64,000 bases of DNA from Pseudomonadota bacterium (GTDB taxonomy: Bacteria; Myxococcota_A; UBA9042; CAIXZC01). Below, piece by piece: positions 38,301 through 53,830 of the stretch (the stretch's first letter is position 1; each line of letters begins with the position of its first letter). The position numbers were made by a program, and so were the translations under genes. The stretch is from NCBI GenBank assembly GCA_043815665.1, contig JBDRIT010000025.1:145490-209489 (forward strand). The letters are read 5' to 3'. The notes under the pieces were generated by a model. That model saw nothing but the letters and a program-made list of their open reading frames with translations. It did no database searches and was not told the DNA's origin.

Positions 38301-38923
38301 GTGCACACGCCGGCGATGCAGGTGTCGTTCTCCGTGCAGATCGACGCGTCGTCGCATTCGGTCTCCCACACCAGCGCGTGGTCACAGTCACCGTCGGCCC
38401 CGCAAGAGTCGATGGTGCACACGTTGTCGTCGTCGCAGTCCACTGCCGATCCAGCGCAGATCCCGGCCCCGTCGCAGAGGTCGTCCTCGGTGCAGGGATC
38501 CCCGTCGTCGCAGGCCCCGCCATCGAGGAGTTCGCTGACACAGCCCTCGGTGCCCGCGCAGCTGTCCACGGTGCAGGGGTCCCCGTCGTCGCACTCGCCC
38601 GAGACCATGTCCAGGTTGTCCACCTCGCCGTCACAGTCGTTGTCGAGGCCGTCGCAGATCTCGTCCTCGGGGACGCAGGGCGGGGCCTCTGGTGGCAGAT
38701 CCTCCGGCGCCACGTCGAGATCGTCCGTCAGGACGTCCGACGCGTCCGGCATCATCGCGTCGGGTTCCACCTGGTCACCGGACACCAGCTCCGACACGTC
38801 CGGCTCGACCGCCGTGTCGGTGTCCTGGGTGGGTCCCGTGCATCCGAAGACCAGGACACAGGCCAGGAGGACGGCCGGGCGGACGAAAATCAACCCTGGT
38901 TTCATCATTCTCTCGTTCATCAT
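35366..38923 (-). CDS. Lipoprotein with ~35 tandem Myxo-type Cys-rich repeats (C-x-D-D/E-N-x-C-T-x-D-x-C) and a C-terminal beta-propeller-like domain
   Basis: Lipobox LVFGCTG. Repeats such as CDDGDPCTVDSCAGTEGC. C-terminal ~420 aa are Cys-poor. The ATG overlaps the upstream TGA (ATGA). Confidence 0.75.
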   Translation of the reverse strand: MMNERMMKPGLIFVRPAVLLACVLVFGCTGPTQDTDTAVEPDVSELVSGDQVEPDAMMPDASDVLTDDLDVAPEDLPPEAPPCVPEDEICDGLDNDCDGEVDNLDMVSGECDDGDPCTVDSCAGTEGCVSELLDGGACDDGDPCTEDDLCDGAGICAGSAVDCDDDNVCTIDSCGADGDCDHALVWETECDDASICTENDTCIAGVCTGDAIDCDDGDLCTDDVCDPVDGCIHPDNHVPCNDMDPCTVSDNCTDGVCVGFEVPCGCTVDGDCDEIAALDLCAGALQCDLIALPPKCAVTPYTWTLCVKPQGLGAECLESFCDPGTGECSFVPANDGAACDDGDLCTMATICVAGVCEDGLPTNCHDENVCTTDTCDPMSGCVYAPNDNPCTDVNLCTVGDHCEDEVCAATGALPCDDGNLCTDDSCAPAVGCVHDFNTLPCDDGDACTVDEMCSGGSCFTLAPLVNCDDGNVCTTESCDPASGCVFANNLESCTDADACTTGDHCEEGSCVTTGIPDCDDGNVCTDDSCDPATGCVNANNVLECTDADACTLGDVCVEGACQSGMAKVCDDENVCTDDVCVEGECVFTANAAECTDDDACTLGDHCADSQCMTTGVEVCDDENPCTDDSCDPAEGCVFTPNQELCDDENACTGIDICAEGQCVPGDAVDCTDEDPCSADTCEEATGCVHTNVPIDCMVSDWGDWASCETDDGTCQGTRLHSRAITLEPACGGVECPMLEESEACDMPGETSCDDLDVCTLLDVCDDQGACAGTPSVEILEPDGCDDDDPCTLDSCTSGESAICNHTPSATVPVAEGGCDDGNPGTADSCDPESGCVNVIIPEWTELATDFLANTYKFKLALLDDEPYLVTVAAWAGQEALGEVSVRRWDGEAWVSASDGLEMPLSYVISAKVNDNKLYVSGFSGAIRVYSDSTWEALPNHAPGTTGGSVIDFDDNGDLYVAYIHNEDGSSGYNWRLSVKKLDTDTNTWEPVGYSGPEGLGVWSYGGQGFFDLAVTGGTPYVFFTQQPSEVGIGASDPEWADSVHNIIMRFSDDTWSVVGDPGDLPTNAQTSSNNHVSIQGETIVATLQHSPAYCHTAATGWQICSTVSSYSGTATVPFESKLHSMFNNSGLTLHSFDGTTWNEISVPLVDDGLGGSQLAIETNGTVYVVTGLGWPWTLSLFSFQL

Positions 38924-41484
38924 AAGGACCTCGCACAGCGGAAGCCGATGTCACCGGTCTCGTCGTCGTCCTCGGGCACCCCCGCCCGGGTCGACACCGA
39001 GCAGGCCGCCGCAGCGTCGAGATAGCTGCCGCCGCGGACCACTCTCACGCCGTCACAACCCGTCTCCCAGGGTGGGTACCCCAGGGACGGCGCCCCGATG
39101 TAGCTCGGGTGGTAGCAATCAGACACCCACTCGGAGACGTTGCCGCTCATGTCGAAGAGGCCGGCGGCGTTCGCCAGCTTGCCACCGACCTCGTGCTTCG
39201 TCCCGTCGGAGTTGCCTGCGGTCCAGGCCACGTCGCCCAGACAGGCGCTGGCGCTCCCGCAGACGAACGCCGTGGCGCTGCTCCCGCGCAGGGCGAGCTC
39301 CCACTCGGCCTCCGTGGGCAGGCGCGCCCCGATCCGCTGGCAGAACTCCGCCGCCTGGGTCCAGGCCACGCACTCCACGGGGAACGCAGCGCCGGACGGG
39401 TCGCAGGAGGGCGTCAGACCCATGGAGAACTCGAAGTCCTCCTCCGTGACCTCCATCGCGAGGATCTCGAAGGGCTGCACCGCCACCGGGTGACTGGGGT
39501 ACTCGTCGGGATCGGGACAGATGCCTGTGGGGCAGCCCATCCAGAACTGGCCCCCGGGGATCGAGATCCACTCCAGGTCCGGCACGTTCTGCCCGCAGAC
39601 GCCCACGTAGCAGCCGAAGCCGGGATCGCAGTCCCCGCAGGTACCGCCGCACCAGTCGTCGCCGCACTCCTTGCCGCCGCAGATCGGCGTGCAGCAGGCG
39701 CCCTGGAAGCACTTCCCCGTGGCGCAGGGCTCGCCGTCGGTGACGGGCTCGTTGACGCAGCCCGAGGACGGGTCGCAGGAGTCCACGGTGCAGGTGGTGC
39801 CGTCGTCGCAGGCCGCGGACGCGTCCACGTAGTAGCACCCCTCCGTGGGGTCGCAGAGGTTCGTGGTGCACGCGTCGCCGTCGTCGCAGGGCAGGGGATC
39901 CACGCCGCTGCCGCAGCCACCAAGCGCGCAGGTGTCGCCCACGGTGCAGACGTCGCCGTCGTCGCAGGGCACGGTGTTCGGCGCGTGGACACAGCCCGTC
40001 GCCGGCGCGCAGGAGTCGTCGGTGCAGAGGTTCAGGTCGTCACAGTCCGGCGGCGGGCCGCCGACGCAGACGCCGGTGTCACAGACATCGTCCAGGGTGC
40101 AGGCGTTGCCGTCCACGCACTCCGCGCCGCTGGCCGGTGTGTAGAGGCAGCCGGGCCCCGGGTCGCAGAGGTCCGTCGAGCAGGGGTCACCGTCGTCACA
40201 GTCCACGGCCTCCGGGCCGACGCAGATCCCCTCCGAGCAGATGTCCGCGGTGGTGCAGGCGTCCCCGTCGCTGCACGGCGCCGTGTTGAAGACGTGCTGG
40301 CAACCGACGCCGGGCTGGCAGGAGTCCGTGGTGCAGAGGTTGTCGTCCTTGCAGTTCGTCGTGCCGCCGTTGACGCAGATCCCCGCCATGCAGGTCCCCG
40401 TCTTCGTGCAGATCTCCCCGTCCTCGCAGACGCCGCCCTCGTTGATGGCGACCACGCCGCAGTTCCCCGTGGAGCCGTCGCAGTGCGCAGCGACGCAGTC
40501 GGCGTTCGGCCCCTCCGGCGGCTCCGGACAGGACGGCACGGTGAGGGGATTCACCGCGCAGGTAAAGGGGAAGGTCGCGTAGTCACAGAAGAGGATCCCG
40601 TTGCAGAGGTCGCCGTCCTCCAGGACCAGGCAGTCGACGTCGTTCTCGCAGTCGCAGGGGAGCACGAAGCCGACGCATTCCCCCAGCGCGCACTCGTCGT
40701 CCACGGTGCAGGGGCTCCCGTCGTCGCAGGGCTCGAAGTTCGCGGTGAAGGTGCAGCCCGTCGCCGGCTCGCAGGAGTCGTCGGTGCAGAGGTTGCCGTC
40801 GTCGCAGGTCAGGGGCGTCCCTACGCACAGACCTTCGACGCAGAGCTTTGCGACGGTGCAGAGGTCCCCGTCCCAGCAGGGCACCGCGTCCAGGTCCTCG
40901 AAGGCACAGCCGCTCACCTTGTCGCAGCTGTCCTGGGTGCAGGGGTTCCCGTCGTCACAGTCGGTGAAGGTCCCCTGGCAGACGCCGTCCCCGCAGGTGT
41001 CCCCTGCGGTGCAGGCGTTGTCGTCGTCGCAGGCCACGTCGGTGAGGGACGCGAACTGGCATCCCTTCCCGGGCTCACAGGTCCCTACGATGCAGGGGTT
41101 TGGGTTGGCGCAGAGGGACTGATCCGGGTCCTCGGGCGGGTTGTCCACCACGCCGTCGCAGTCGTTGTCCTGGCCGTCGCAGATCTCCGGCTCGGGGACG
41201 CAGACGATCTCCTCGACCACCTCGACGACGTCGGGCTCGACCACCTCCATGACCAGATCGGGTTCCTCGGTGTCCTGGCCCGGGAGGACCTCCAGCACCA
41301 CCGCGTTGGGGTCCTGGATGCAGACCCCATCGGCACCGCAGACCTCTCCCGCGGGGCACTGCGAGTCGTTCAGGCAGGCGGTCCCGTCCCCGGTCAGCAC
41401 CAGGGTCCCCCCGTCGCAGGCGCCCAGGAGGATCACCAGGGCGAGGACCAGGCCCCGCACCGCACCAGTGGCTGTCCTATTCAT
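38920..41484 (-). CDS. Lipoprotein with Myxo-type Cys-rich repeats and a C-terminal formylglycine-generating-enzyme (FGE-sulfatase/SUMF1) family domain
   Basis: ggagaaggagatcggcaATG. Lipobox LVILLGAC. C-terminus WISIPGGQFWMG...RLPTEAEWE...GNVSEWVSD...RVVRGGSY...GFRCARS. The track ORF's upstream 31 codons are discarded. Confidence 0.75.
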   Translation of the reverse strand: MNRTATGAVRGLVLALVILLGACDGGTLVLTGDGTACLNDSQCPAGEVCGADGVCIQDPNAVVLEVLPGQDTEEPDLVMEVVEPDVVEVVEEIVCVPEPEICDGQDNDCDGVVDNPPEDPDQSLCANPNPCIVGTCEPGKGCQFASLTDVACDDDNACTAGDTCGDGVCQGTFTDCDDGNPCTQDSCDKVSGCAFEDLDAVPCWDGDLCTVAKLCVEGLCVGTPLTCDDGNLCTDDSCEPATGCTFTANFEPCDDGSPCTVDDECALGECVGFVLPCDCENDVDCLVLEDGDLCNGILFCDYATFPFTCAVNPLTVPSCPEPPEGPNADCVAAHCDGSTGNCGVVAINEGGVCEDGEICTKTGTCMAGICVNGGTTNCKDDNLCTTDSCQPGVGCQHVFNTAPCSDGDACTTADICSEGICVGPEAVDCDDGDPCSTDLCDPGPGCLYTPASGAECVDGNACTLDDVCDTGVCVGGPPPDCDDLNLCTDDSCAPATGCVHAPNTVPCDDGDVCTVGDTCALGGCGSGVDPLPCDDGDACTTNLCDPTEGCYYVDASAACDDGTTCTVDSCDPSSGCVNEPVTDGEPCATGKCFQGACCTPICGGKECGDDWCGGTCGDCDPGFGCYVGVCGQNVPDLEWISIPGGQFWMGCPTGICPDPDEYPSHPVAVQPFEILAMEVTEEDFEFSMGLTPSCDPSGAAFPVECVAWTQAAEFCQRIGARLPTEAEWELALRGSSATAFVCGSASACLGDVAWTAGNSDGTKHEVGGKLANAAGLFDMSGNVSEWVSDCYHPSYIGAPSLGYPPWETGCDGVRVVRGGSYLDAAAACSVSTRAGVPEDDDETGDIGFRCARSL

Positions 41485-42865
41485 TGCCGATCTCCTTCTC
41501 CGACACCTTGAACTCGACCCGGCGGTTGGCCTTGCGGCCCTCGGGGGTCGTGTTGTCCCCGATGGGGCGCTGGGCACCGAAGCCCTTCGCGTCGAGGCGT
41601 GCCGCGGGGACGCCCTTGCTGACCAGGTAGGTCACCACGGACTTCGCCCGGTCCGACGACAGCGCGAGGTTGCGGTCCGCGTCTCCCACGTTGTCCGTGT
41701 GCCCCTCGACCCGGATCTGATGCACCGCGGGGTGCGCCAGGATCCAGCGGGCGACCTCGTCCAGCTCCTTCATCGATGCGGGCAGGAGCACGTCTCGATT
41801 GGTCTCGAACTGCACCCGCTGCGCGATCTCCAGGAGCTCCTTCGGGGTCTCCACCGGCGGCGGAGGAGGAGGCGGAGGAGGCGGAGGAGGTGGAGGCGGC
41901 GGAGGCGGAGGCGGAGGCGGCGGAGGCGGAGGTGGCGGAGGTGGCGCCGGGGGCTCAAAGGTGCAGCGCTCGAAGCGGAACCCGGAGGTGACACGGAAGG
42001 CCGCCTCACCCATGCCGCCCACGAGGCCGCCGCCCCCCGCGACGTAGACCCGGGCCCAGTCGCCGACGCAGGCGTCGAGGCCCACCTGGCCCTCCATCGC
42101 GGTGCCATCCGTCGAGAGCCCTCCGACCCAGGAGGAGAACACCGTCATCTCGCCGAGGAGCCCGAGCTTGTCCTCCAGGAACCCCTGACGGAGCCCCAGG
42201 CCCATGGCCAGCCCGCTGCCGGCGTCGAAGCCGACGATGGTCTGCGTCTCCAGGAGCCGGACCCCCGCGTTCAGAGCGATCAACGTCGCGGTGGGGAACC
42301 GGTAGTCCAGAACCACCCGGGCCGCCCCCGAGAACCCGCCGGACCCGGAGTAGGTCCCCGCCGTCGCGGTGGGGAAGCCGATGTCCGCGTCCACGCCGAG
42401 GCCGAAGCCCGTCCTCACCCGCGGGAACGCCAGGAATCGGAGGCCGAGGCGCAGATCACCCAGGCCCCAGGCGTCCGCGGTGGGCGCGCCGGTGATCCCA
42501 GAGCTCCCCGCGGCGAAGAGCGTCACCGGGAGGTTCACCCCCACGGAGAGGCGGCGCCATCGGCTGAACGCGGCGAAGAGATCCCCGGTCAGGAGCTGCT
42601 CCACGGGGTGGAAGGTGGCGTCCCTCCCGGTCCTCTGATCATCGATGACCAGGGGATCCCGGGCGTAGGTGACGAAGAAGCCCCCGGAGAACCCGCCACC
42701 CAGCCAGGCGGCGGTCCGGATCATCATCAGATCCCCCGCGTGGGGGGAGGCCTCGAAGTGCTGCACGTTGAGCTTCGGCTCCCCACCCCGGGCGGGACCG
42801 CCGATGACGGCCGCCAGCAGGAGGACGCCGGCCGCTGCTCCGATTCGAATCCTGTTCATGGACAT
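41477..42865 (-). CDS. OmpA-family protein: N-terminal OM beta-barrel-like domain, ~30-residue polyproline linker, C-terminal OmpA peptidoglycan-binding domain
   Basis: Signal peptide MSMNRIRIGAAAGVLLLAAV. C-terminus RVEGHTDNVGDADRNLALSSDRAKSV...GFGAQRPIGDNTTPEGRKANRRVEF. Its stop lies inside an 8-nt overlap with the next gene's start. Confidence 0.8.
   Translation of the reverse strand: MSMNRIRIGAAAGVLLLAAVIGGPARGGEPKLNVQHFEASPHAGDLMMIRTAAWLGGGFSGGFFVTYARDPLVIDDQRTGRDATFHPVEQLLTGDLFAAFSRWRRLSVGVNLPVTLFAAGSSGITGAPTADAWGLGDLRLGLRFLAFPRVRTGFGLGVDADIGFPTATAGTYSGSGGFSGAARVVLDYRFPTATLIALNAGVRLLETQTIVGFDAGSGLAMGLGLRQGFLEDKLGLLGEMTVFSSWVGGLSTDGTAMEGQVGLDACVGDWARVYVAGGGGLVGGMGEAAFRVTSGFRFERCTFEPPAPPPPPPPPPPPPPPPPPPPPPPPPPPPPPPVETPKELLEIAQRVQFETNRDVLLPASMKELDEVARWILAHPAVHQIRVEGHTDNVGDADRNLALSSDRAKSVVTYLVSKGVPAARLDAKGFGAQRPIGDNTTPEGRKANRRVEFKVSEKEIGNE
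41853..41953 (-). repeat. Simple-sequence coding repeat (GGAGGC/GGAGGT)n on the plus strand, encoding ~30 consecutive prolines
   Basis: Read directly from the DNA. The protein run is PPAPPPP...P. Confidence 0.7.
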
Positions 42866-42925: not shown

Positions 42926-45900
42926 TCAATTCGCTGGACCACAGTAGCCCCCATAGCCGTCCGGGTCCCCGGGCCAGCAGTACCAGGTCCCGGAGTGCCC
43001 GCAGTCCTGGCAGGTCCCGGCCTTCGCACCGCAGTACCCGTTCGACTGCTCGTGCCGGTAGTGGCAGCCCGTCATCCAGCCCTGGTAGGTCAGGTTCTGG
43101 AAGTTCGGGGCACAGCAGCCGGGGCAGCCCTTGCCCCCGGGGTACACGTACCCGCAGTCCTGCGGGCAGTTGCACATGGTCTCTTTGAACTGGCTCTCGC
43201 AGTTCTGGTTTCCGCATGCCAGGTAACACTTGCCGTCGTAGCCGCAGTATTGCTTGTTCTGGTCGGGGCAGACGCCGCAGTACACGCCGCAGACCGGATC
43301 GTTGCCGCAGACCCTCCCCGCGCAGGGCTGGCCGCAGTCCTGGGGGCAGGTGCATTTGGTCTCCCCAGCCTGACACTGCCCATTCCCACAGATCGGGTAG
43401 CAGTTGTTGCCGGAGCAGGTGTATCCGTTGGAGCAGGTGCCGCAGAACTCGCCGCAGACCGGCTCGGTCCCGCAGGTCTTGTTCGCGCAGGGTTGTCCGC
43501 AGTCCTCGGGGCAGTTGCACTTGGTCTCCCCGGGCTGGCACTGCCCGTTGCCGCAGACCGTCACACAGGTCCCCCCGTCGCAGGTCAGGTACTGGGGACA
43601 CGCGGGGCACTCGACACCGCAGACCGGATCGACGCCGCACTCCACATCGACGCAAGGGTCGCCGCAGTCCAGCGGGCAGGTACAGAGGGTCTCGCTCGGG
43701 TCGCAGAGGCCGTTGCCGCAGAGCAACAGGCAGGCGCCCGCGTCGCAGTACTCATCGACCGCACAGGTGCCGCAGCCGAAGCCGCAGACCGGATCCGCGT
43801 CGCACTCGATGCCCGCGCAGGGGTCGCCGCAGTCCTCGGCGCAGGAGCACAGGGTCTCGCCCTTGTCCACCTCGCAGCCGAACTCGCCGCAGGTCGGCGG
43901 GCAGTAGCCGCAGGTGTCGCAGGAGTCGGGGCAGCAGGTCCCGGCCAGGATGCACGCCTCGCTGCAGTCGCAGACCCCGCCGGAGCCGTCGCACTCGCAG
44001 GGGGAGCATGCATACGGGTCGTCGGGGCAGTCCAGGGGGCAATCGCACGAGGTCTCGTCGCCGTTGCACACCCCGTCCCCGCACGTGGGGGGGCAGACGC
44101 CGCAGAGGAGGCACGCGTTCACACAGCAGTTCCCGGCGTCCACGCAGTCCGGTCCGCAGCCGCAGGTCCCCCCGGACCCGCCGCACTCGCACAGGGAGCA
44201 GGTCGACGGATCGTCGGGGCAGTCCGCGGGGCAGGAGCAGGAGTTCTCCTTGCCGTTGCACTGGCCATCGCCGCACTCCGGGACGCAGACCCCGCAGGCG
44301 TCGCAGGAGTCCGCGCAGCAGTTCCCGGTGGCCACGCAGCTCGGGGCGCAGGAGCAGGAGCCCCCGGAGCCGCCGCAGTTGCAGGGGGAGCAGCTGAGGG
44401 GGTCGTCTGGGCACTCCACGGGGCAGGAGCAGGAGTCCTCGCCGTACCCCGGCTCACAGAGGCCGTTTCCGCAGCAGTCACCGCAGTCCTGGGGGCAGGC
44501 CTGGCAGGTCTCGTCCCCGTTGCACTGGCCGTCCCCGCAGGCCGGGGCGCAGTTGCCGCAGAGCTGGCAGTCGTTCGCACAGCAGGTCCCCGTCGCGATG
44601 CAGGCCGCGTCGCAGGCGCAGTTGCCGCCGGTCCCGCCGCACTCGCAGGCTGAGCAGGTCTCCGGATCGTCGGGGCAGTCCGCAAGGCAGGAGCAGCTGT
44701 CCTCCTGGTGCTGGACCTCGCAGAGGCCGTTGCCGCAGCACGGACCGCAGTCGATGGGGCAGCCGCTGCAGGTCTCGCCGTACTCGCAGCTGCCGTTGCC
44801 GCAGACCGCGGGGCAGGCCCCGCAGAGGCCACAGGCGTTGGCGCAGCAGGTCCCCAGCTGGACACAGTCCGGGCTGCAATCGCAGCTCCCCCCGGTGTCG
44901 CCGCACTGGCAGGCCGAGCAGGAGTTGGGGTTGTCGGGGCAGTCCGCGGGGCAGGAGCAGGAGTTCTCCTGGTACTTCGCCTCGCAGGCGCCGTTGCCAC
45001 AGCACGATCCGCAGTCACCGGGGCAGGAGGTGCAGGTCTCGCCCTCCTCGCAGGCCCCGTCGCCGCACTCCGGCGGGCAGGCGCCGCAGGTGTCACAAGC
45101 GTCGGCACAGCAGCTGTTCGTCACGTGGCAGAGGTCGTCACACCAGCAGCTCCCGCCGTTGCCGCCGCACTGGCAGGCAGAGCAGGAATCGAGATCATCT
45201 GGGCAGTCCGTGGGGCAGGAACAGGAGTCCTCTCCGAGGGCCGCCTGGCAGATGCCGTTCCCGCAGCAGCTCCCGCAGTCCGCCGGGCAGGTCCCGCAGC
45301 CTTCGGTGGCTGCGCAGGCTCCGCCCCCGCAGACCGCGGGGCAGGAGCCGCAGGCCGTGCACGCATTGGCGCAGCAGTCCCCGGTGAGCACGCAGGAGGG
45401 GCCGCACTTGCAGGCGTCGCCGCTACCCCCGCACTGACAGGGAGAGCATGTGTCGAGATCATCCGGGCAGTCCGCGGGACAGGAGCAGGAGGTCTCGTTC
45501 TGCTGGGGCTGGCACACCCCGTTGCCGCAACACGGGCCGCAGTCCGCCGGGCAGCTCTTGCAGCTCTCGGCGCCGGTGCACTGCCCGTCCCCGCAGACCA
45601 CGCAGAGGCCGCAGGACGAGCAGATGTTGGCGCAGCAGTTGCCGGTCAGGCCGCAGTCCGGGGCGCAGCTGCAGCTCCCGCCGCTGGTGCCGCACTGACA
45701 GGAGGAGCAGGTGTTCGGGTTGTCAATGCAGTCGGCCTCGCAGGAGCAGGAGGACTCGTTGAAGTTGGCCTCGCACTGCTGGTTTCCGCAGCAGAGCCCA
45801 CAGTCCTGAGGACAGGTCCCGCACTTCTCGCCGTTGTCGCACTGGCCGTTGCCGCAGCACTGGCCGCAGTCCGGCACGCAGGTGAGGCAGGTCTCCCCCT

Positions 45901-46450
45901 GAGCGGCCTTGCACTGGCCGTCCCCGCAGCAGTCGCCGCAGTCCTGCTTGCACGTGCTGCAGCTCTCCCCCTTCCCGGGCTCGCACTTGCCGTCGCCGCA
46001 GCAGATCCCGCAGTCCTGGGGGCAGGTGCCACAGTTCTCGTTGGCCGCGCAGACGCCGTTGGGGCAACAGGGGCCGCAGTCCTGGGGACAGGTGATGCAG
46101 TCCTCGGTCAGGTCGCAGGTGTAGTTGCCGCAAGCCAGGCCGCAGTCCTCGGGGCAGTTGACCTGGTTCTCCATGCCGTTGCATTCCCCGTTGACGCAGC
46201 AATGGCCGCAGTCCTCGGTGCAGTTGCAGGGCGACTCGCCGCTGGCTTCGTCACACTTGCCGTTGCCGCAGAGGGTCGAGCAGTCCTGGGGGCAGCTCTC
46301 GAGCTCGCCCGGGGTGCAGACCCCGTCGCCGCAGTGGACGCCGCAGTCCGCGGGGCAGGTGAGCGCGTTCTCTCCCTTGGCCGAATCGCAGAACAAATCA
46401 CCGCAGTAGGGAAGGCACTTGCGATCCTGGCAGAAGTGGGTGGACTCGCA
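42926..46450 (-). repeat. Intragenic array of Cys-rich coding repeats (three nested periodicities)
   Basis: Periodic CP[AQ]DCG.CCGNG.C in the translation, with corresponding partial DNA periodicity. Confidence 0.7.
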
Positions 46451-47863
46451 GGTGCCGCAGCTCTTGAAGCAGATGGGATCGTAGCTGCACTCGCAGCCGG
46501 TGAAGTTCGGGACGCAGGTGGTGTCCAGGGTCGGGTCCTTCTCGTCCCCTGCGATGAACTTGGGGAAGGGGTTGTCATCGCCCAGGATCCACCCGAGGAG
46601 CTCCGGCGACGCGTAGTCGAAGAGCGTCATCCCCATGATCTCCCCGGCGACCCCCACGTAGGCCTCGACGCCCCACTCCAGGACCCACCAGGGCAGGGCC
46701 TTGTTCAGCAGGTCCTTGATGCCGGCCCGGAGCTGGATGTACACGTCGGCCTGCACGTAGGGGCCGGCCACGCCGAAGATCTTGGCCGCCAGCTTGAGCC
46801 CGGAGTAGACCTTGACCAGGGCCTCGATCCCGAACTCGGGCTCGGTGTAGTCGAAGGATCCGTCGAAGTTGGAGTAGGGGTTGAACCCGTCCCCGCTGTC
46901 CCCGTAGTCCCGGTAGTCGATGCCGACCTCGACGCTGATGCTCGACGTCACCGTGGTCTCGAGGGTGAAGAAGACGCCGACCTCCCAGGCGAGGAACAGC
47001 TCGAGGCTGATGTTCAGCGGGACCGGCCCGATCATGAGCGTTCCGAGGTTCAACGTGGCGAGGGTCTGGCTCCCCTCCATCTTCAAGACGGGCGCCTTGA
47101 TGAGGAAGTCGAGCTCACTCTCCGCCTCGACGAGGGTGCCGACCCGCAGGTGGTAGAGCTGCAGGAGGATGCCGATGTCGATGTCGAACTGGAGGGTCAT
47201 CCCGAAGTCGATGGTCCCGCCGACGGTGATCTGGTCCGTCGTCGTGGCCGAGTTGGCGTCCGCGTCGAAGATCACGATGGGCGGGAAGGTGATTGAGAAC
47301 AGGTCGCCGCCGAGCTCGCTGTACCCGGCGTACAGGGACAACACCGGGGAGCGCTTGACCTCCAGGCCGTCGATCTTGGTCTCGTAGTTGTCCATGTCCT
47401 CGTAGCGGGCGTTGCGCACCAGCTCGATGTGGAGCTCGTCGAAGGCCTCCTCGAGGGTCGCCGGCTCGGTCTCCACGCTGACGGTGCCGTCGGGGTTCAC
47501 GGTCTTGGACTTGACCTTGAACAGCCCGCCCTGGGGCGTCTTGGACGAGGGCCCGAACATCAGGACGTTCCCCTCCACCGCGTCGGCCACCAGGGGGGAG
47601 TCCGCGGCGAGGACCATGGCCCCCGCCGTCCCGGACACGGGGATCGAGAGGACCGTGGCCTCGACCTCATCGGGCAGCATCGTGCGGGTGGTCGCCGGCA
47701 GCTCGTACTCGACCTTCATCACCTCGTCGAGGCCCTTGGGCTTCTTCTTGAGCTGGACCGCTCCGTGCTCCTCGTCGGAGCACGCTGCGACGCCGAGGAG
47801 CAGGGCCAGACCAAGGATCCCGGAAAGCAGATGAATCGTGCGTCGCATGGTGTTCTCCATCAT
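42926..47863 (-). CDS. Giant Cys-rich repeat lipoprotein (1645 aa): ~470-aa N-terminal domain followed by a hierarchical array of C-P-x-D-C-G-x-C-C-G-N-G-x-C modules
   Basis: Lipobox ALLLGVAAC. One nucleotide separates it from the upstream OMP gene's stop. Six ~22-aa units, then five to six ~88-aa super-repeats, then four ~55-aa units. ~25% Cys. Confidence 0.8.
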   Translation of the reverse strand: MMENTMRRTIHLLSGILGLALLLGVAACSDEEHGAVQLKKKPKGLDEVMKVEYELPATTRTMLPDEVEATVLSIPVSGTAGAMVLAADSPLVADAVEGNVLMFGPSSKTPQGGLFKVKSKTVNPDGTVSVETEPATLEEAFDELHIELVRNARYEDMDNYETKIDGLEVKRSPVLSLYAGYSELGGDLFSITFPPIVIFDADANSATTTDQITVGGTIDFGMTLQFDIDIGILLQLYHLRVGTLVEAESELDFLIKAPVLKMEGSQTLATLNLGTLMIGPVPLNISLELFLAWEVGVFFTLETTVTSSISVEVGIDYRDYGDSGDGFNPYSNFDGSFDYTEPEFGIEALVKVYSGLKLAAKIFGVAGPYVQADVYIQLRAGIKDLLNKALPWWVLEWGVEAYVGVAGEIMGMTLFDYASPELLGWILGDDNPFPKFIAGDEKDPTLDTTCVPNFTGCECSYDPICFKSCGTCESTHFCQDRKCLPYCGDLFCDSAKGENALTCPADCGVHCGDGVCTPGELESCPQDCSTLCGNGKCDEASGESPCNCTEDCGHCCVNGECNGMENQVNCPEDCGLACGNYTCDLTEDCITCPQDCGPCCPNGVCAANENCGTCPQDCGICCGDGKCEPGKGESCSTCKQDCGDCCGDGQCKAAQGETCLTCVPDCGQCCGNGQCDNGEKCGTCPQDCGLCCGNQQCEANFNESSCSCEADCIDNPNTCSSCQCGTSGGSCSCAPDCGLTGNCCANICSSCGLCVVCGDGQCTGAESCKSCPADCGPCCGNGVCQPQQNETSCSCPADCPDDLDTCSPCQCGGSGDACKCGPSCVLTGDCCANACTACGSCPAVCGGGACAATEGCGTCPADCGSCCGNGICQAALGEDSCSCPTDCPDDLDSCSACQCGGNGGSCWCDDLCHVTNSCCADACDTCGACPPECGDGACEEGETCTSCPGDCGSCCGNGACEAKYQENSCSCPADCPDNPNSCSACQCGDTGGSCDCSPDCVQLGTCCANACGLCGACPAVCGNGSCEYGETCSGCPIDCGPCCGNGLCEVQHQEDSCSCLADCPDDPETCSACECGGTGGNCACDAACIATGTCCANDCQLCGNCAPACGDGQCNGDETCQACPQDCGDCCGNGLCEPGYGEDSCSCPVECPDDPLSCSPCNCGGSGGSCSCAPSCVATGNCCADSCDACGVCVPECGDGQCNGKENSCSCPADCPDDPSTCSLCECGGSGGTCGCGPDCVDAGNCCVNACLLCGVCPPTCGDGVCNGDETSCDCPLDCPDDPYACSPCECDGSGGVCDCSEACILAGTCCPDSCDTCGYCPPTCGEFGCEVDKGETLCSCAEDCGDPCAGIECDADPVCGFGCGTCAVDEYCDAGACLLLCGNGLCDPSETLCTCPLDCGDPCVDVECGVDPVCGVECPACPQYLTCDGGTCVTVCGNGQCQPGETKCNCPEDCGQPCANKTCGTEPVCGEFCGTCSNGYTCSGNNCYPICGNGQCQAGETKCTCPQDCGQPCAGRVCGNDPVCGVYCGVCPDQNKQYCGYDGKCYLACGNQNCESQFKETMCNCPQDCGYVYPGGKGCPGCCAPNFQNLTYQGWMTGCHYRHEQSNGYCGAKAGTCQDCGHSGTWYCWPGDPDGYGGYCGPAN

Positions 47864-47864
47864 G

Positions 47865-48788
47865 TCAGTTCTCCACCCGCTGCCGGGGCTCCCAGGCTAC
47901 GTGCAGCATCGCTTCCCAGGCCGCGGAGCCCGCCAGATCACCGAACCCGGCGCCGCCGGCGACGCCGATCATCAAGTCTGAACCCGCACGCACCTGCAGG
48001 CCGCCGCGGATCGCGGTGGCGAGGGACCGCTCGCCGGTGAACGCAGAGTCCACCAGGGTGCGGGTCTGGCTGCTCAGAAGGAGCTCCAGGCGATCCCGCA
48101 GGATGGGGATCCGAAGGCCGATCCCCAGGAGCAGCTCGTCGCTCACGGGCGGGGTGAACTCCCGCGCTGCCTTGCGGGCCAGGTAGCCCACGTTGAGGGC
48201 CACGATGAAGCCCTTGATCTGGTAGTCCAGGATCAGCCGCGTGACCGACGTCGGCGCGTCCGCGCCGAAGAGCTTGTCCCCCACGGAGGTCGGCAGGGTC
48301 AGGTCCTGGGCCACCCCGAGGCCGAAGCCCTTGTTGTGGTTGTCCCAGAACTTCGCCTTGAAGGAGAGCCTGAGATCGCCCAGGCCTGCCCCGGCGACCT
48401 GCGTCCACGCTGGATTGACCAGCGCGGGATCCCCGCCCGCTGAGTGGAGCAGCACCGGCAGATCGATGCCGACGCTGGCCAGGCCGAAGAGAGGCAGCGC
48501 GACCTGGAGGTCACCGACGAGCTGGTCGCCCACCAGGGCCACCTCACCCTCGCCCTCGAAGCCCACCGCGACCAGGGGGTCCTTGCGGTAGGTAAACCAC
48601 ACACCCCCGGAGACCCCAAGGTGGGGCCCGACCCGGGTCGTCACCGTGTCGAGGATGTCCCCGGCGTGAGGAGAGGGCTGGAAGTCATCGACGTTGATCT
48701 TCGGGTTGCCTGCATGGGCGAGCGGGCCCGCACAGACACAGAAGATCGTGACAAGAGCCAAGAGGGTACAGTTCGCAGGTCGCACCAT
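47865..48788 (-). CDS. Outer-membrane beta-barrel protein, paralogous to the N-terminal domain of the OmpA-family gene; first gene of the operon
   Basis: Signal peptide MVRPANCTLLALVTIFCVCAGPLAHAG. NPKINVDDFQPSPHAGDIL parallels PKLNVQHFEASPHAGDLM of the OmpA gene. ATG at 48788 preceded by aaggcggtgg. Confidence 0.65.
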   Translation of the reverse strand: MVRPANCTLLALVTIFCVCAGPLAHAGNPKINVDDFQPSPHAGDILDTVTTRVGPHLGVSGGVWFTYRKDPLVAVGFEGEGEVALVGDQLVGDLQVALPLFGLASVGIDLPVLLHSAGGDPALVNPAWTQVAGAGLGDLRLSFKAKFWDNHNKGFGLGVAQDLTLPTSVGDKLFGADAPTSVTRLILDYQIKGFIVALNVGYLARKAAREFTPPVSDELLLGIGLRIPILRDRLELLLSSQTRTLVDSAFTGERSLATAIRGGLQVRAGSDLMIGVAGGAGFGDLAGSAAWEAMLHVAWEPRQRVEN

Positions 48789-48874
48789 GGGGTCCACCGC
48801 CTTCGTGTCAGACTCAGCGCAGAACGCGAGGCGAATTTATCCTGCCTGCTCAATGAAAAGACAATAGACGCCGT

Positions 48875-48911
48875 AGAATGTCCGAAACGGCTGGCAGAAC
48901 GTCCGAAACGC
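48875..48911. promoter_or_regulatory. Direct repeat AGAAYGTCCGAAACG x2 with 21-bp phasing, ~90-120 nt upstream of the operon start and downstream of the AraC-HTH regulator gene
   Basis: agaatgtccgaaacgg (48875-48890) and agaacgtccgaaacgc (48896-48911), read directly from the sequence. Confidence 0.35.
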
Positions 48912-48942
48912 CACAGCGCTGCGCCCACCGTGGCCGATCAAG

Positions 48943-51900
48943 TCACGTGACCCGGTCCCCCGATGGCGGGTGGCCGTACCAGGCAGAGTAGACCTGTGAG
49001 AAGTAGCTGGCGCTCATCCCCACCCTTGCGGCCACCTCTGCCGACGTGTCGAATTCCCCGGATCTCAGCATGGAGCGCGCCTCCTCCAGGCGCAGCTGGC
49101 GGACGAGCTGGACCGGCCCGAAGCCTGTGGCCTCCCGACACCGCCGCTGGAGCTGCCGGGGACTCAGGGCCATCTCCCGCGCCAGGGCCGGCACGGAGAA
49201 CTCAGGATCGGCCAGGTGGACCAGCACGATGGAGCGGAACTTCTCCCAGAAGACCCGGCCCGCCGGCGTCACCTTTATCCCCTCCGGTGACTCTGCCCCG
49301 GCCGCAGTCACAGCGGACGTGCCTGCAGCAACGTCGACCCCCGAACGAACGATCTGGTTGCGTACCCGCGAGAGGAGATCCTTGATCCCGAAGGGCTTCG
49401 CCAGGTAGTCATCGGCGACGGCCAGCCCCTCGGCGCTCGCACCGGGGCCGGACCGCGCCGAGATCAGCACGACCCGCACCTCCGCCAGCTGGGGATTCGA
49501 CCGGATCGCCGCCGCAAGCTCCAGGCCGTCCATCCGAGGCATCATGATATCCGACACCACCACCCGGGGCCGCTCCCTGCGAACGAACTCGAGGGCCTCC
49601 CGACCGTCCCTGGCCTGGGCCACCCGACCGAGGCCGGTGAGGTGTGAGGCGAGGTAGGACCGCATGTCCTCGTTGTCCTCCACCACCAGCACGAGGGGCT
49701 CGTCTTCGCCCCGGTCTTCCCCGTCACCCTGGATTTCAGCCGACGGGACAGCCCCACCCGAGGCCTCCGCCTCGAGCTGATCCAGGGTGAGGTGCTGCAC
49801 CCCCATGGGCAGGCGGACCAGGAAGCGGCACCCCGTCCCCTCGGCGTCATCGAATCCGATCTGCCCGCCGTGGAGCTCGACCAGCTCCCGGCAGAGGGAG
49901 AGCCCGATGCCCATTCCCTGGGGTCTCCATCCCTGTCTGGGCACCTGGCAGAAGCGCTCGAAGATCCGCTCCCTCGCGGCGACGGGGATTCCGGGCCCGG
50001 TGTTGAGGACGGTCAGCGTCACGTACGCTGTGCCCCACCCGTCCTCCTCCTGGCCGGGAGCCGGTCCATGGGTCGAGACCAGGACGCGTCCTCCCCGGGG
50101 GGTGTGCTGCAGGGCATTGGTCACGAGATTGGACAGCACCGTTTCCATGAGATCCGCGTCGAAGTACAGCGACAACTCCCCCGGTCCCGTGTCCGCAGCG
50201 AAGTCCAGGCCCCGGTCAGCCGCGTCGACCTCGAAGCGCTCGACGGTTCGCCGCACGAAGGCGGCGAAGTCCTGCCTGCGGGTTCTGAGCCTCATCGCGC
50301 TGCCGTCCAGGAGGGCGACCTTCACGAGCTGTCCGATCAGCTCGTGAAGGCGTGTCGCGTTTCTCCGGATCACGTCCAGGGTTCGAAGCTCCTCGCCGCC
50401 CGTGCCCCCCAGACAGGCCGCCAGATCCTCCAGGGGCCCCAACACCAGGGCGATGGGGGTCTTGAGCTCGTGGGACACGTTCGCGAGGAACCGGGTCTTC
50501 ATCCGGTCGGTCTCTTCCAGCCGCCGGGCCTGGTCTTCCAGGGTCCCTTCCCGTGCCTTCAGCAGGGCGGTTGCCTCCCTGACCTGGACCTCGAGCTCCC
50601 GCTTCCGACGGCGCAGCCGCCGCGTCCGCTGCCACGCCAGGGCGCCGACCAACACCAGGCCGGCGAAGACCAGCAACGCAATGAACATCCAGGTCTCGTT
50701 GAACGCGGGCCTGCGGTGGACGTCCAGCCGCACCGGCTCCCCCCAATCCAGGAGCCCGGCCTGGACCTCGAAGGTGTATCCACCCGGGGGCAGGTTCGTC
50801 CAGGAGGCGACGCGCCCGGCCCCGGGTGCGCTCCAGGCATCGTCGAAGCCCGCCAGCCGGTAGCGGAACCTCACGTCCTCGGGCCAGACCAGCTCCGGGC
50901 AGTGCCAGCGCACGGAGAAGCCCCTCTCCTCGGGCTCGAGGACGATCCGCTCCGGGATGTCGGACGGATCGACGGTCCGATCACCGTACGTGATGGTCTC
51001 GATGGCCGCCCGGGGAGGGGGCGGCGTCGGGAAGCTCTCCGGGCGCACGCCGGAGAGCCCCACCTGCGTCGGATACCAGAGGAGGCCGTCGGGGGATCCC
51101 GCCAGGGCGGGCTGCATGTATCCGTTGGCTTCGCCGGACGCCATGCCGTCACTCTGGTCCAGGGTCAGCGCGAGGACGTGGTCCCGGTCTGAGGAGAAGT
51201 ACGCCTCCAGCACCGCCCGCTCGAGGATCGAGATGCCCCGGTTGCTGCTCAACCAGATCCGTCCGAGCCGATCTTCGGCTACGGAGTGGATGGTGTCGTC
51301 GGGCAGGCCGGCCGCCCGGCTCACGCACACCCTGGGCCCCGCGGTCATCCCATCCTGCCCCAGACCCACCCTGCAGAGGCCGGAGTCGTCGGTGCCCAGC
51401 CAGGCAACACCGCCGCGGTCGACGGTGACGAAGCGGATGCCGACGCTCCCGAGGCCCGGGTCCGGGCTGAAGGACTCCCGCTCCCCCGACCGATACCGCA
51501 CGAGCCCGCGATCCCGGGTCGCGATCAGCACCGACCCGTCAGGGGCCTCGGCGAACATCCGCACGGTGTCGGAGCCCAGGTCACCGCCCCCCGCCACCCG
51601 CCTCGACGTCCAGGAGCCCCCCTGCTCCTCGATGTTCCAGAGACCGCCCGTGATGTTCGAGTACCAGATCTTCCCGGTCGCGTCCTGGTAGCCAGGCCCC
51701 CGCTGCCAGTTCATGTCACCGAGGGGCGGCAGGGGCACGCACCGGTCCCCGTCCACCTGGCAGATCCCGCCGTTCGAAGGAATCCACACGCGCCCGTCCC
51801 GCAGCAGGATGGGTGGATACGCCGTGATCTTCGCTCCCGCGTCGGGCACGCTGGTTCCGGTCACCGCGATGCGCGTGGCCCCTCCGGCCCCGATCCGCAC

Positions 51901-53085
51901 CACCCCGGCGTCTCCTTCAGAGACCCAGAAGTCGCCCGACCCGTCGATGGAGACGGCGCGGACGTTGCCATCCCCGAGGCCGTCAGAATGACCGAGGGAC
52001 AACACCGGTGACGGGCGGAGGCGCAGCAGTCCCTGTCCCTCCGCGGCCACCCACAGATGCCCCATGTCGTCGACGAAGAGCCGGTTGACCCGGTCGATCC
52101 CCCCGGCCAGGCGCACCCCGTCTCTCCAGATCGCCTGGTCCGAGTGCTCCCACAGATGCCCATCAGCAAAGAGCGCGGGGAGCCGCCGGCTGTTGATGGG
52201 GCCCGGCGGTGCAGTGGGCGCCACTGGAGGGACCAGCCGCCCGCCGGACACCCCCCACCAGCGGGTGGACGACCGGGCCAGGACCTCGCCCGAGGGGCCC
52301 TCCAGCACCTGCAGGAAGGGGTCGTCCTCCGCACCCCTCGGCCCGGGCAGCCGCACGACCTCGTCACCGTCCACCCGCAGCAGGCCGTGCGCGCTGGTGA
52401 TGTACACGGCGCCGTCGTCCATCACGAAGGGCCTTCCATGGGGTTCCCGGGCGTACAGCCCCAGGAGGGAAAGCCCCTGCGGCGCTCCCGTCACGGGCAG
52501 ATGATGGAGGATGTCGCTGTTTCCGTTGACCCACAGGTCCCCCGACCGCGTCCCGTCGAGGACCCGCAGCGGGCCGGGGCTGAGCCCCCGCCCGAGCACC
52601 TCCGGCGCGCCGTCGCCGAGCAGGTACACCTCGTCGTACAGGGCGAGCACCCTCCCGCGGCCCTTCCACAGCCAGAGGGTCCGCCCCTCCTGGGGCCGGG
52701 GAAGGCTCCAGGAGGAGAAGCCGTCCGCGGTCATGCGGATGAGCTTGCCGGTCTCGCCCGCGATCCACAGGGCGCCGTCGTCGCCGACCTCGAGGTTGTA
52801 CAAGCGGTTGGTCAGCAGCTCCGGGGTGTCCGCCCGGCGGTGGATCCGGACCTCGAGGCCGTCGAACCGCACCAGGCCGTCGAAGGTGGCCAGCCAGACG
52901 TTGCCGTCAGGCGTCTGGGCCACATCCTCCACGTGGGACAGGGGCAGGCCGTCGTCCAGGGTCCACCGATCGACCAGCCACCCCGATGCTGGAGATCGTG
53001 AGGTCGTCCTTGCTGCCGTCGGGAGCGCTGGGAAGAGCAAGGACAGGGCCATGGCGAAGAGCGCGATTCCCCACCGATGGCCCAT
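48943..53085 (-). CDS. Hybrid two-component system sensor/regulator: periplasmic Reg_prop beta-propeller + Y_Y_Y + TM + HisKA/HATPase + receiver + AraC-type HTH
   Basis: gcaaggagcaggATG. Signal peptide MGHRWGIALFAMALSLLFPALPTAA. SHELKTP H-box, GMGIGLSL G-box, REC (VVSDIMMPRMDG...LAKPF), C-terminal AraC HTH. Confidence 0.85.
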   Translation of the reverse strand: MGHRWGIALFAMALSLLFPALPTAARTTSRSPASGWLVDRWTLDDGLPLSHVEDVAQTPDGNVWLATFDGLVRFDGLEVRIHRRADTPELLTNRLYNLEVGDDGALWIAGETGKLIRMTADGFSSWSLPRPQEGRTLWLWKGRGRVLALYDEVYLLGDGAPEVLGRGLSPGPLRVLDGTRSGDLWVNGNSDILHHLPVTGAPQGLSLLGLYAREPHGRPFVMDDGAVYITSAHGLLRVDGDEVVRLPGPRGAEDDPFLQVLEGPSGEVLARSSTRWWGVSGGRLVPPVAPTAPPGPINSRRLPALFADGHLWEHSDQAIWRDGVRLAGGIDRVNRLFVDDMGHLWVAAEGQGLLRLRPSPVLSLGHSDGLGDGNVRAVSIDGSGDFWVSEGDAGVVRIGAGGATRIAVTGTSVPDAGAKITAYPPILLRDGRVWIPSNGGICQVDGDRCVPLPPLGDMNWQRGPGYQDATGKIWYSNITGGLWNIEEQGGSWTSRRVAGGGDLGSDTVRMFAEAPDGSVLIATRDRGLVRYRSGERESFSPDPGLGSVGIRFVTVDRGGVAWLGTDDSGLCRVGLGQDGMTAGPRVCVSRAAGLPDDTIHSVAEDRLGRIWLSSNRGISILERAVLEAYFSSDRDHVLALTLDQSDGMASGEANGYMQPALAGSPDGLLWYPTQVGLSGVRPESFPTPPPPRAAIETITYGDRTVDPSDIPERIVLEPEERGFSVRWHCPELVWPEDVRFRYRLAGFDDAWSAPGAGRVASWTNLPPGGYTFEVQAGLLDWGEPVRLDVHRRPAFNETWMFIALLVFAGLVLVGALAWQRTRRLRRRKRELEVQVREATALLKAREGTLEDQARRLEETDRMKTRFLANVSHELKTPIALVLGPLEDLAACLGGTGGEELRTLDVIRRNATRLHELIGQLVKVALLDGSAMRLRTRRQDFAAFVRRTVERFEVDAADRGLDFAADTGPGELSLYFDADLMETVLSNLVTNALQHTPRGGRVLVSTHGPAPGQEEDGWGTAYVTLTVLNTGPGIPVAARERIFERFCQVPRQGWRPQGMGIGLSLCRELVELHGGQIGFDDAEGTGCRFLVRLPMGVQHLTLDQLEAEASGGAVPSAEIQGDGEDRGEDEPLVLVVEDNEDMRSYLASHLTGLGRVAQARDGREALEFVRRERPRVVVSDIMMPRMDGLELAAAIRSNPQLAEVRVVLISARSGPGASAEGLAVADDYLAKPFGIKDLLSRVRNQIVRSGVDVAAGTSAVTAAGAESPEGIKVTPAGRVFWEKFRSIVLVHLADPEFSVPALAREMALSPRQLQRRCREATGFGPVQLVRQLRLEEARSMLRSGEFDTSAEVAARVGMSASYFSQVYSAWYGHPPSGDRVT

Positions 53086-53374
53086 CCTGCTCCTTGCGTG
53101 CATGTGTGTGGGCCAAAGTGCCCCATCCGATGTGGGGGTGGCCCTGCACTCCGCGGTTCCTCCGAATCATCCCATGCCCTCCGACAAATTCAAGCCCTAT
53201 CAACTCTTCCACTGGCACTCCCTCTTGCATGGCGCGCCGGAGGAGCGTATAGAATGCGCACGTCCATCCCGGACTGCGGCGAAGGAAAGACGCCACGACA
53301 CCCAGGCAACAACAGGCGACGGCAGCGCTCCGCATCGAAGCCTTCGAGCTCTCCTCCCTCGTGGATACCACCCC

Positions 53375-53830
53375 GTGAGCGTGGAGATCCAGCCCCTCCA
53401 TGATCTCGACTCGATCCGCCAGCTGATCCGCATCCACGACGCGGCCTGGAAGGGCTCCACGGGGATCCTGGACCTCCTGAGGAACTCCACCACCTGTCTG
53501 CTCGCTCGGGGTCCCCGGGGCCGCATCGTGGCGTACCTCTTCCTCGAGGAGGACCGGTCCCGGGGCTTCTTCGAGATCCAGGACGTGGTGGTGCACCGCC
53601 GCCACCGCCGCAAGGGCTACGGGCGCCTCATCGTGGAGGCGGCCATGGCCCGCTGCTGCGCGCTCAAGCTCCTGGCCAGCGCCAACAAGCCCGGCCTGCT
53701 GCATTTCTACAGCGGCCTCGGGTTCGAGGTAGAGCACCGCATCGAGAACTACTACGACGTGGGGGACGACGCGGTCCGCATGAGCTGGCGAGGTGCGTCG
53801 CCCTCCGGCGGAGGCGCGGCCAATCAGTAG
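53375..53830 (+). CDS. GNAT family N-acetyltransferase
   Basis: Acetyl-CoA-binding region VVVHRRHRRKGYGRLIV. GTG start. ~151 aa. Confidence 0.7.
   Translation: MSVEIQPLHDLDSIRQLIRIHDAAWKGSTGILDLLRNSTTCLLARGPRGRIVAYLFLEEDRSRGFFEIQDVVVHRRHRRKGYGRLIVEAAMARCCALKLLASANKPGLLHFYSGLGFEVEHRIENYYDVGDDAVRMSWRGASPSGGGAANQ

Follow-up and report, generated by a model that had tools for sequence, protein, structure and literature searches.

A Bacteroides-type hybrid two-component regulator with a predicted 21-bp direct-repeat operator beside a TraB-like/Cys-rich operon in a probably Myxococcota-like genome

The 64-kb window analysed here (the whole stretch of 64,000 nucleotides from contig JBDRIT010000025.1) encodes, on its minus strand, a hybrid two-component system regulator (HTCS) whose domain for binding DNA is of the AraC type, followed co-directionally by a five-gene operon for TraB-like outer-membrane proteins and Cys-rich lipoproteins. 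Between the two, at 48875-48910, AGAAYGTCCGAAACG occurs twice, 21 bp apart. From computational evidence, we consider it probable that a ligand-triggered phosphorelay within the HTCS leads its AraC domain to bind these repeats and so to activate the operon. An earlier reading of the same DNA (the original prediction) had put forward this regulatory hypothesis, and it is the best-supported reading of the locus, given the 21-bp geometry of the family, the related half-site cores beside relatives and the co-occurrence of regulator and repeat. To our knowledge, HTCSs have been studied almost only as Bacteroidota glycan sensors, and the locus poses the question of whether the same one-protein signalling logic operates in a Myxococcota-like bacterium, where it would control cell-surface proteins and not sugar catabolism.

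In the mechanism that we propose, a periplasmic ligand would bind the propeller/Y_Y_Y sensor, the kinase core would autophosphorylate His872, and the phosphoryl group would pass to Asp1179 of the receiver, either within the protein or within a dimer. The two AraC-type domains of the dimer would then occupy half-sites at 48910-48896 and 48889-48875, which lie 21 bp apart on the same helix face and just upstream of an AT-rich, promoter-like patch. We infer that occupancy of this operator would activate, rather than repress, the co-directional operon (48788-35366).

The HTCS coding sequence spans 48943-53085 on the minus strand and encodes 1380 amino acids from the ATG at 53085, as judged from the open reading frame (ORF) list, the translation, an identical NCBI protein (P0001) and Pfam. 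This ATG is the second in the frame; the alternative upstream ATG at 53103 would give an ORF of 48943-53103 and 1386 amino acids. The NCBI entry, identical to the 1380-residue version, is titled ‘MAG: ATP-binding protein [Pseudomonadota bacterium]’, where MAG stands for metagenome-assembled genome. Its accession is MFH1529684.1, and its contig measures 235,696 bp. The original prediction had carried the gene to 53374, which overshoots by about 280 nt: the translation meets in-frame stops at about 53167-53200, and the true end lies at 53085 or 53103. The remaining 270 nt (53104-53374) are intergenic DNA between the HTCS and a divergent GNAT-like gene (about 53375-53830, plus strand).

The order of domains, as originally proposed, is propeller repeats, Y_Y_Y domain, transmembrane (TM) segment, histidine kinase, receiver and AraC-type helix-turn-helix (HTH), and both Pfam and hydropathy bear this out. 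Pfam places Reg_prop, Y_Y_Y, HisKA, HATPase_c, Response_reg and HTH_18/HTH_AraC in succession, every one above its gathering score. On Kyte-Doolittle hydropathy, from which the topology is predicted, TM-like peaks occur solely at residues 7-25 (53011-53067, peak 1.95), a signal peptide or first TM segment, and at residues 800-818 (50632-50688, peak 2.58), the TM segment MFIALLVFAGLVLVGALAW. Between them lies the predicted periplasmic sensor of about 775 residues (residues ~26-799; 50689-53010), with Reg_prop repeats (Pfam 1.2e-12) and a Y_Y_Y domain (about 50758-50883; 3.9e-12). The sensor is collinear with solved HTCS sensor domains, namely 4a2l/BT4663 (E 8.6e-23) and 3v9f (E 4e-20; residues 367-793 against 357-776).

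The cytoplasmic part is similarly intact. The histidine kinase core (49804-50502), delimited by Pfam and alignment, comprises HisKA (50323-50502) and HATPase_c with its N, G1 and G2 boxes (49804-50160); the phospho-acceptor His872 lies in SHELKTP, and this residue and those of the N, G1 and G2 boxes are invariant in an alignment of 25 sequences. The receiver (49360-49692; Response_reg 5.4e-21), placed by Pfam, by alignment with PDB entry 12aw_A and by the alignment of the clade described below, carries Asp1179 in VVVSDIMMP and Lys1230 in KPF, and these two residues and Asp1137 are likewise invariant across the 25 sequences. The AraC/XylS-type DNA-binding domain (48961-49185; HTH_18 9.4e-17) has two helix-turn-helix motifs. 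Receiver and HTH together match 12aw_A, a ‘hybrid two-component system protein’, with E 2.5e-29. With the full set of domains, the catalytic residues present and homology to solved HTCS domains, the protein is a complete and apparently functional AraC-type HTCS, and the layout typical of Bacteroides that had been read from the sequence stands on both the Pfam assignments and these structural matches.

The stop codon of the HTCS lies at 48943-48945. The next gene could start at a GTG at 48797, leaving the gap of 145 nt given by the original prediction, although ATG 48788 is the likelier start because GAAGGCGG precedes it, and the gap would then measure 154 nt; in either case the regulator is directly upstream of and co-directional with the tightly packed operon, as had been stated. 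The repeat pair in this gap is also exactly as first described. Read on the transcribed strand, the predicted operator consists of a distal half-site CGTTTCGGACGTTCT (48896-48910; AGAACGTCCGAAACG on the other strand) and a proximal half-site CGTTTCGGACATTCT (48875-48889; AGAATGTCCGAAACG on the other strand), the latter ending 86 nt before ATG 48788. Both half-sites, which run from 48910 to 48896 and from 48889 to 48875, follow CGTTTCGGAC(R)TTCT with a start-to-start spacing of 21, and the whole pattern is CGTTTCGGACRTTCT-N6-CGTTTCGGACRTTCT, 36 bp in length.

Such a repeat is rare. Dinucleotide shuffling of the 145-nt region produced a direct repeat matching at 14/15 positions, with any spacing between 10 and 60, in 2 of 3000 cases (P ~7e-4), and the 64-kb window holds no other copy of the motif at up to 2 mismatches. 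We note that 13 equally good repeats occur in the window, most with spacings that are multiples of 3 (not mapped to genes); among them, the pair described here is the one that lies in an AT-rich, promoter-like gap beside an AraC-type regulator. The 6-nt spacers that follow the two cores, GCTGGC and CCACAG, have 1 of 6 bases in common, and the cores are identical at 14 of 15 positions. A fresh tandem duplication as the origin of the repeat was rejected on account of these differing spacers, and the confinement of the similarity to the cores fits selection better than recent duplication.

The sole AT-rich stretch of the gap (…TTGTCTTTTCATTGAGCAGGCAGGATAAATT…) comes right after the repeats. Within it we read, by eye, a putative activator-dependent promoter (48834-48866, minus strand) with a -10-like TAAATT at 48839-48834 and TTGTCT 19 nt upstream; if this TAAATT is taken as the -10 element, the centres of the half-sites would fall at about -55 and -76. 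The start of the distal half-site is spanned by the 8-mer GCAGAACG, of which a second copy lies 75 nt off at 48819-48826, near the proposed transcription start; this second copy may be due to chance or may be a weak third site. The intergenic transcript matched no Rfam family and showed no unusual fold (z 0.40), and a riboswitch, attenuator or small-RNA reading was discarded on these results. Likewise, the region upstream of the HTCS (53104-53374) contains no matching repeat or copy of the operator motif, and autoregulation through the same motif was dropped for that reason.

The spacing of 21 bp is the one predicted for HTCS operators in general. For 16 Bacteroides thetaiotaomicron HTCSs, the operators predicted by Ravcheev et al. 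(2013) are all direct repeats whose two sites lie 21 bp apart on average (PMC3878776), and HTCS fragments comprising receiver and HTH bind two such promoters in electrophoretic mobility shift assays (PMC11253607). We surveyed loci from genome and metagenome scans, retaining those in which a single ORF combines an N-terminal sensor with a kinase, a receiver and an AraC HTH. Among the matches listed, this sample comprised 65 ORFs, 59 of which were independent and had enough downstream DNA. Direct repeats of 14-mers were scored at 12/14 matches or better within 300 nt after the stop codon, at spacings of 10-45.

Repeats at 21 bp were found in 7 of the 59 loci: the window, L003, L127, L159, L160 and the Bacteroidota loci L009 and L061. 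Any other spacing from 10 to 45 was seen in at most 1 of 59. In shuffled sequences the mean number of loci at spacing 21 was 0.05, and no spacing was ever reached by more than 2 loci; the HTCS coding sequences, used as a control, showed no peak at 21 bp. The reasoning that AraC-type HTH domains bind direct repeats, part of the original prediction, thus gains from both sources: such repeats are predicted for 16/16 Bacteroides HTCSs (PMC3878776) and are enriched in the survey. The gene downstream of the repeats in the Bacteroidota controls is a GH31 (L009) or a GH11 (L061), the classic kind of HTCS target. The position relative to the next gene is similar too. In the window, L003, L127, L160 (from the printed sequences) and L009, the distance from the proximal site to the next start codon is about 75-115 nt; in L009 the site ends about 85 nt before that codon, a geometry matching that of the window, and for L061 the distance is estimated at about 75-90 nt. 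The window, with predicted direct-repeat sites at 48875-48889 and 48896-48910 and a spacing of 21 beside the operon, has the operator arrangement expected of an HTCS.

Half-sites also recur among relatives. The sister HTCSs P0003 (locus L003) and P0005 (L165), 62% identical overall and 79% in the HTH, have at their loci a common TTGNCGCNCGGGGAC, present twice at 21 bp. L003 has two TTGNCGCNCGGGGAC pairs, placed after the HTCS and before a downstream biosynthetic operon; the pair of L165 lies in the divergent region upstream of the HTCS and points at the neighbouring operon. Similarly, L127 and L160, treated as related loci because the same SBP56-like gene follows in both, keep CCACGTTGCGC twice at 21 bp with an altered spacer. 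In the subclade of the window protein itself (eight loci), the spacing of GGAC(A/G) pairs has its peak at 21 bp, with such pairs in the window, twice in L003 and in L166; at least 3 subclade loci with such pairs at spacing 21 were obtained in 1 of 2000 shuffles. Recognition helices are alike across the subclade, e.g. S(P/R)RQL…R and S..YFS..Y.AW(Y/F)G. With GGAC(A/G) cores at 21 bp and similar recognition helices, the half-sites of the window look like members of the operator family of this subclade.

Several details of these loci may be recorded in their own right. The four half-sites after P0003 (L003 11748-11841, seen also in L004) form two 21-bp pairs within a 52-bp duplication, their core being CGGGACAT/GGGGACAT. 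The operon that follows comprises PP-binding, AMP-ligase, class I/II aminotransferase, sulfotransferase and MFS genes and looks like sulfonolipid-type biosynthesis under HTCS control. The CCACGTTGCGC pairs are located at 7841-7875 in L127 and at 6047-6080 in L160, upstream of the SBP56-like (selenium-binding / methanethiol-oxidase-like) gene. In L001, three perfect tandem copies of the 11-mer TCAGTCGGCGT (10280-10312) follow just after the HTCS homologue, at the start of the convergent neighbour.

The predicted target consists of five minus-strand genes separated by tiny gaps or joined by overlapping start and stop codons. Gene 1 (47865-48788) encodes a secreted, beta-barrel-like protein of 307 residues that resembles Phenol_MetA_deg and the N-terminal portion of TraB (Pfam, NCBIfam). 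Gene 2 (42926-47863) encodes a lipoprotein of 1645 residues with 16.8% cysteine and no family match, and gene 3 (41477-42865) a TraB-like barrel with an OmpA peptidoglycan-binding domain. The Cys-rich lipoprotein of gene 4 (38920-41484), whose likely ATG overlaps the stop codon of gene 3, has Dicty_CTDC repeats and an FGE-sulfatase domain; gene 5 (35366-38923), whose start overlaps the stop of gene 4 (ATGA), encodes a Cys-rich protein with Dicty_CTDC repeats and a TSP1-like domain. The product of gene 1 is paralogous to the N-terminus of that of gene 3 (36% identity, E 2e-24).

Homologues of gene 1 are 47-73% identical, and those at 47-63% include four metagenomic contigs with the same gene order. 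All five genes are present in L169, and the first three or four in L170, L171 and L172, which are cut off by the end of the contig or locus. The order of barrel, ~1650-residue lipoprotein with ~17% Cys, TraB-like barrel-OmpA protein, Dicty_CTDC-FGE-sulfatase protein and Dicty_CTDC protein is thus that of a conserved module. Upstream of these four operons there is neither this repeat nor any 21-bp repeat, nor is there an HTCS gene. Their lack of both supports the link between repeat and HTCS, and shows at the same time that the pairing is specific to a lineage. We therefore read the operon as the older, conserved module, in front of which the HTCS and a matching-looking operator appear to have been placed in this genome.

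Several results weigh against control of the operon by the HTCS. The pairing that the original prediction emphasised holds as adjacency in the window and is not conserved: the upstream neighbour in L169-L172 is GH31, a divergent Dicty_CTDC protein, or a VIT/VWA or Beta_propel protein, and the operon does not generally need an HTCS, because four other contigs carry it with no HTCS upstream. No orthologous HTCS-operon pair is at hand for footprinting, the best relative of the HTCS being ~37% identical and located at an unrelated locus. Within the subclade, L001, L167 and L168 have no clear 21-bp repeat near the HTCS gene, and L002 has CGGAC-core sites at spacings of 17 and 42. A consensus sigma-70 scan gave no promoter in either intergenic region (the HTCS-operon gap and the HTCS-GNAT region), and the proposed promoter has a 19-nt spacer or a poor -35 element. 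A terminator scan of the same two regions found none; read-through transcription from the HTCS into the operon could contribute to its expression. Finally, the uniqueness of the motif rests on 64 kb of genome, with further copies possible elsewhere.

Three other explanations of the locus were weighed, and each is less likely than HTCS control through the repeats. The repeats could be the operator of a different regulator encoded elsewhere, such as another AraC/XylS protein or an HTCS paralogue, with the adjacent HTCS controlling distant genes. The visible 64 kb belong to a contig of at least 235 kb, the adjacency of HTCS and operon is not conserved, and not every HTCS has targets next to it (Ravcheev et al. 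2013; PMC3878776). We nevertheless find such an arrangement unlikely: the repeat is found together with the HTCS and not at the four orthologous operons that lack one, sites beside the closest HTCS relatives resemble it in GGAC(A/G) core and 21-bp phasing, and a site immediately after the HTCS gene is a recurrent arrangement in the survey. An origin by chance or as a neutral feature, for instance an old 21-bp slippage duplication, with the operon constitutive or otherwise controlled, is more doubtful still. It would suit a single two-copy repeat for which no orthologue shows conservation, and the scan of the whole window entails multiple testing (~50 intergenic regions x 7e-4 = ~0.03); however, the low shuffle probability holds for any spacing, and the spacing observed is exactly the one expected beforehand for this regulator family. 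The contrast between conserved cores and divergent spacers, and the location just upstream of the gap's one AT-rich patch, likewise speak against chance.

It is also conceivable, if improbable, that a single transcription unit, driven from the HTCS promoter, takes in both the HTCS and the five genes, in which case the repeats would be internal or autoregulatory, acting as a roadblock or repressor site. The genes are co-directional, the gap is short, the intergenic RNA has no stable fold, and no terminator-like structure separates the genes; this last absence is weak evidence, as canonical terminators may escape a consensus scan at this GC content. Opposed to a single unit are the AT-rich, promoter-like patch after the repeats, the same repeat-then-gene geometry where the site sits in a divergent region (L165), and the lack of a matching repeat in the upstream region of the HTCS itself. 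Control of the operon by the adjacent HTCS through the repeats accordingly remains the reading that we prefer.

The original prediction regarded this HTCS as unusual for a Myxococcota-like genome and raised horizontal transfer as a question for phylogeny. The protein proves not to be a lone import: at least 25 relatives with the full architecture, 31-38% identical to it, come from contigs of 63-77% GC in metagenomes and MAGs, and form a clade distinct from Bacteroidota. Two of 25 are labelled Pseudomonadota MAGs, and a further relative from the genome scan (L005) belongs to a Gemmatimonadaceae MAG. The matches listed from the scans behind the HTCS collection include neither the window's own genome nor cultured Myxococcota. 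Among the matches listed, HTCSs of Bacteroidota and Ignavibacteria are 22-30% identical to the window protein, and both groups lie opposite it in a rough neighbour-joining tree (cytoplasmic part, no support values). A recent transfer from Bacteroidetes is unlikely, since the gene belongs to a high-GC clade apart from the Bacteroidota HTCSs and its GC content matches that of its surroundings; on this GC match and this placement in the rough tree, we set recent transfer aside.

As for the host, a Myxococcota-like bacterium is a reasonable, not a proven, assignment, based on MYXO-CTERM-like tails and on the relatives of a housekeeping carboxyltransferase, whose named matches are Deltaproteobacteria, Pseudomonadota and Myxococcota MAGs at 67-71% identity. 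The tails are found on two adjacent metalloprotease-like ORFs of the minus strand (19753-20778, …GSGLLLFLLVLPLALRRRR; 20637-21980, …GSGVLLLLAGIAMLTRRRR), both of which match the myxosortase-dependent MXAN_2677/2678 family below its cutoff. The description of the genome as MYXO-CTERM-bearing therefore applies to these ORFs elsewhere in the window, while the operon proteins carry no such tail. Genes for Pkinase, FG-GAP, RHS/SpvB, TSP_3 and MopE/DUF4215 Cys-rich proteins, all common in Myxococcota, are among the neighbours of HTCSs of the clade. Host relatives with an 86-90% identical carboxyltransferase are present in metagenomes, and no HTCS orthologue above 37% was found; this suggests that the HTCS is an accessory gene, although incomplete assemblies could explain the missing orthologues too.

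More tentatively, we suggest that these proteins may represent an undescribed, non-Bacteroidota clade of high-GC, AraC-type HTCSs that has kept the 21-bp operator, lost the S/CHIP-DK autoinhibitory interface discussed below and been redeployed from glycan catabolism to other programmes. Its members come from Myxococcota-like contigs, from a Gemmatimonadaceae MAG and from MAGs with a Pseudomonadota label. The putative targets are varied, comprising the acyl-carrier/AMP-ligase/aminotransferase/sulfotransferase operon of L003, the SBP56-like gene of L127 and L160, a Cys-rich TSP_C/MopE protein (L002) and a GH8 (L167), and most genes adjoining HTCSs of the clade have no part in glycan utilisation. 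If redeployment is true, the programmes concerned would include the TraB-like/Cys-rich operon in the window and, elsewhere, a sulfonolipid-like biosynthetic operon or an SBP56-like gene, and the signal read by the propeller sensor would not be a dietary or host oligosaccharide. The survey of 59 loci also offers a practical rule, in that a pair of similar ~14-bp sites exactly 21 bp apart and ~75-115 nt upstream of an HTCS-adjacent gene would mark that gene as an HTCS target; such a rule could serve to assign regulons to orphan HTCSs in metagenomes.

Comparison with known systems places the operon nearest to the TraA/TraB proteins of Myxococcus xanthus, in that genes 1 and 3 match the NCBIfam TraB model NF033763, gene 1 as an N-terminal barrel and gene 3 as a barrel with OmpA. 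The large Cys-rich lipoprotein encoded between them is loosely reminiscent of the Cys-rich TraA. The scores, however, are 89 bits for gene 1 and 139 bits for gene 3, far below the cutoff of 700, and the operon proteins include neither a TraA-family match nor a MYXO-CTERM tail. The five-gene organisation differs as well. Judged by the features of Myxococcus outer-membrane exchange, i.e. a TraB at the equivalog score and a TraA with a PA14-like domain, Cys-rich repeats and MYXO-CTERM, the operon falls outside the TraAB system.

With Escherichia coli AraC at araI (I1-I2) and with other AraC/XylS activators, the DNA-binding domains of a dimer occupy two ~17-bp direct half-sites, with starts 21 bp apart, upstream of the promoter. 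The operator predicted here has the same form of two direct half-sites at 21 bp. AraC itself is a soluble one-component regulator controlled by an N-terminal arabinose-binding domain, whereas in the window protein a receiver governs the AraC domain, which is anchored to a membrane kinase. Outside Bacteroidota, HtsH1-3 of Lysobacter enzymogenes combine Reg_prop/Y_Y_Y, HisKA, HATPase and receiver in one protein and regulate synthesis of the antibiotic HSAF (PMC8463545). They resemble the window protein as non-Bacteroidota hybrid kinases with a propeller sensor, and their function is non-glycan; in contrast to it, they are described with no AraC HTH. A literature search returned nothing relevant on AraC-type HTCSs outside Bacteroidota.

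The closest counterparts are the HTCSs of Bacteroides, exemplified in B. thetaiotaomicron by BT4663 (heparin) and BT4124 (rhamnogalacturonan). With these the window protein has in common the order of a COG3292-type propeller/Y_Y_Y, TM segment, HisKA-HATPase, receiver and AraC HTH, and a predicted operator of two direct half-sites ~21 bp apart beside the regulated genes. One difference concerns autoinhibition. In most Bacteroides HTCSs, the S/CHIP motif of the receiver alpha3-beta4 loop and a D-K pair of the DNA-binding domain form a conserved inhibitory interface, and a minority of them lack the motif (PMC11253607). In the window protein this loop reads AEVR where 12aw_A has CHIP, and the Ser/Cys-His pair is missing in 25/25 clade members (alignment A1, P0001-P0025; the D-K pair was judged by eye). 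Most of the 25 keep only the Pro of S/CHIP, where the window protein has Arg. Because some Bacteroides HTCSs do without it as well, S/CHIP is a feature of a subgroup and not a requirement for HTCS membership. With the S/CHIP-DK interface absent, the tethered DNA-binding domain may be held off, and kept inactive, in a different way.

Host and target set the window further apart. One comparative study describes the HTCS family as unique to the Bacteroidota phylum (PMC3878776); the window protein belongs to a separate high-GC clade in a MAG that is probably Myxococcota-like. Neither SusC/SusD nor a glycoside hydrolase, as expected of a polysaccharide-utilisation locus, occurs among the five downstream genes (Pfam, NCBIfam) or the two upstream neighbours (NCBIfam), and the predicted target is instead an operon for outer-membrane proteins and Cys-rich lipoproteins. 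In sum, an HTCS with a direct-repeat operator is an arrangement already known from Bacteroides, and what is unusual here is the host lineage and the non-glycan target.

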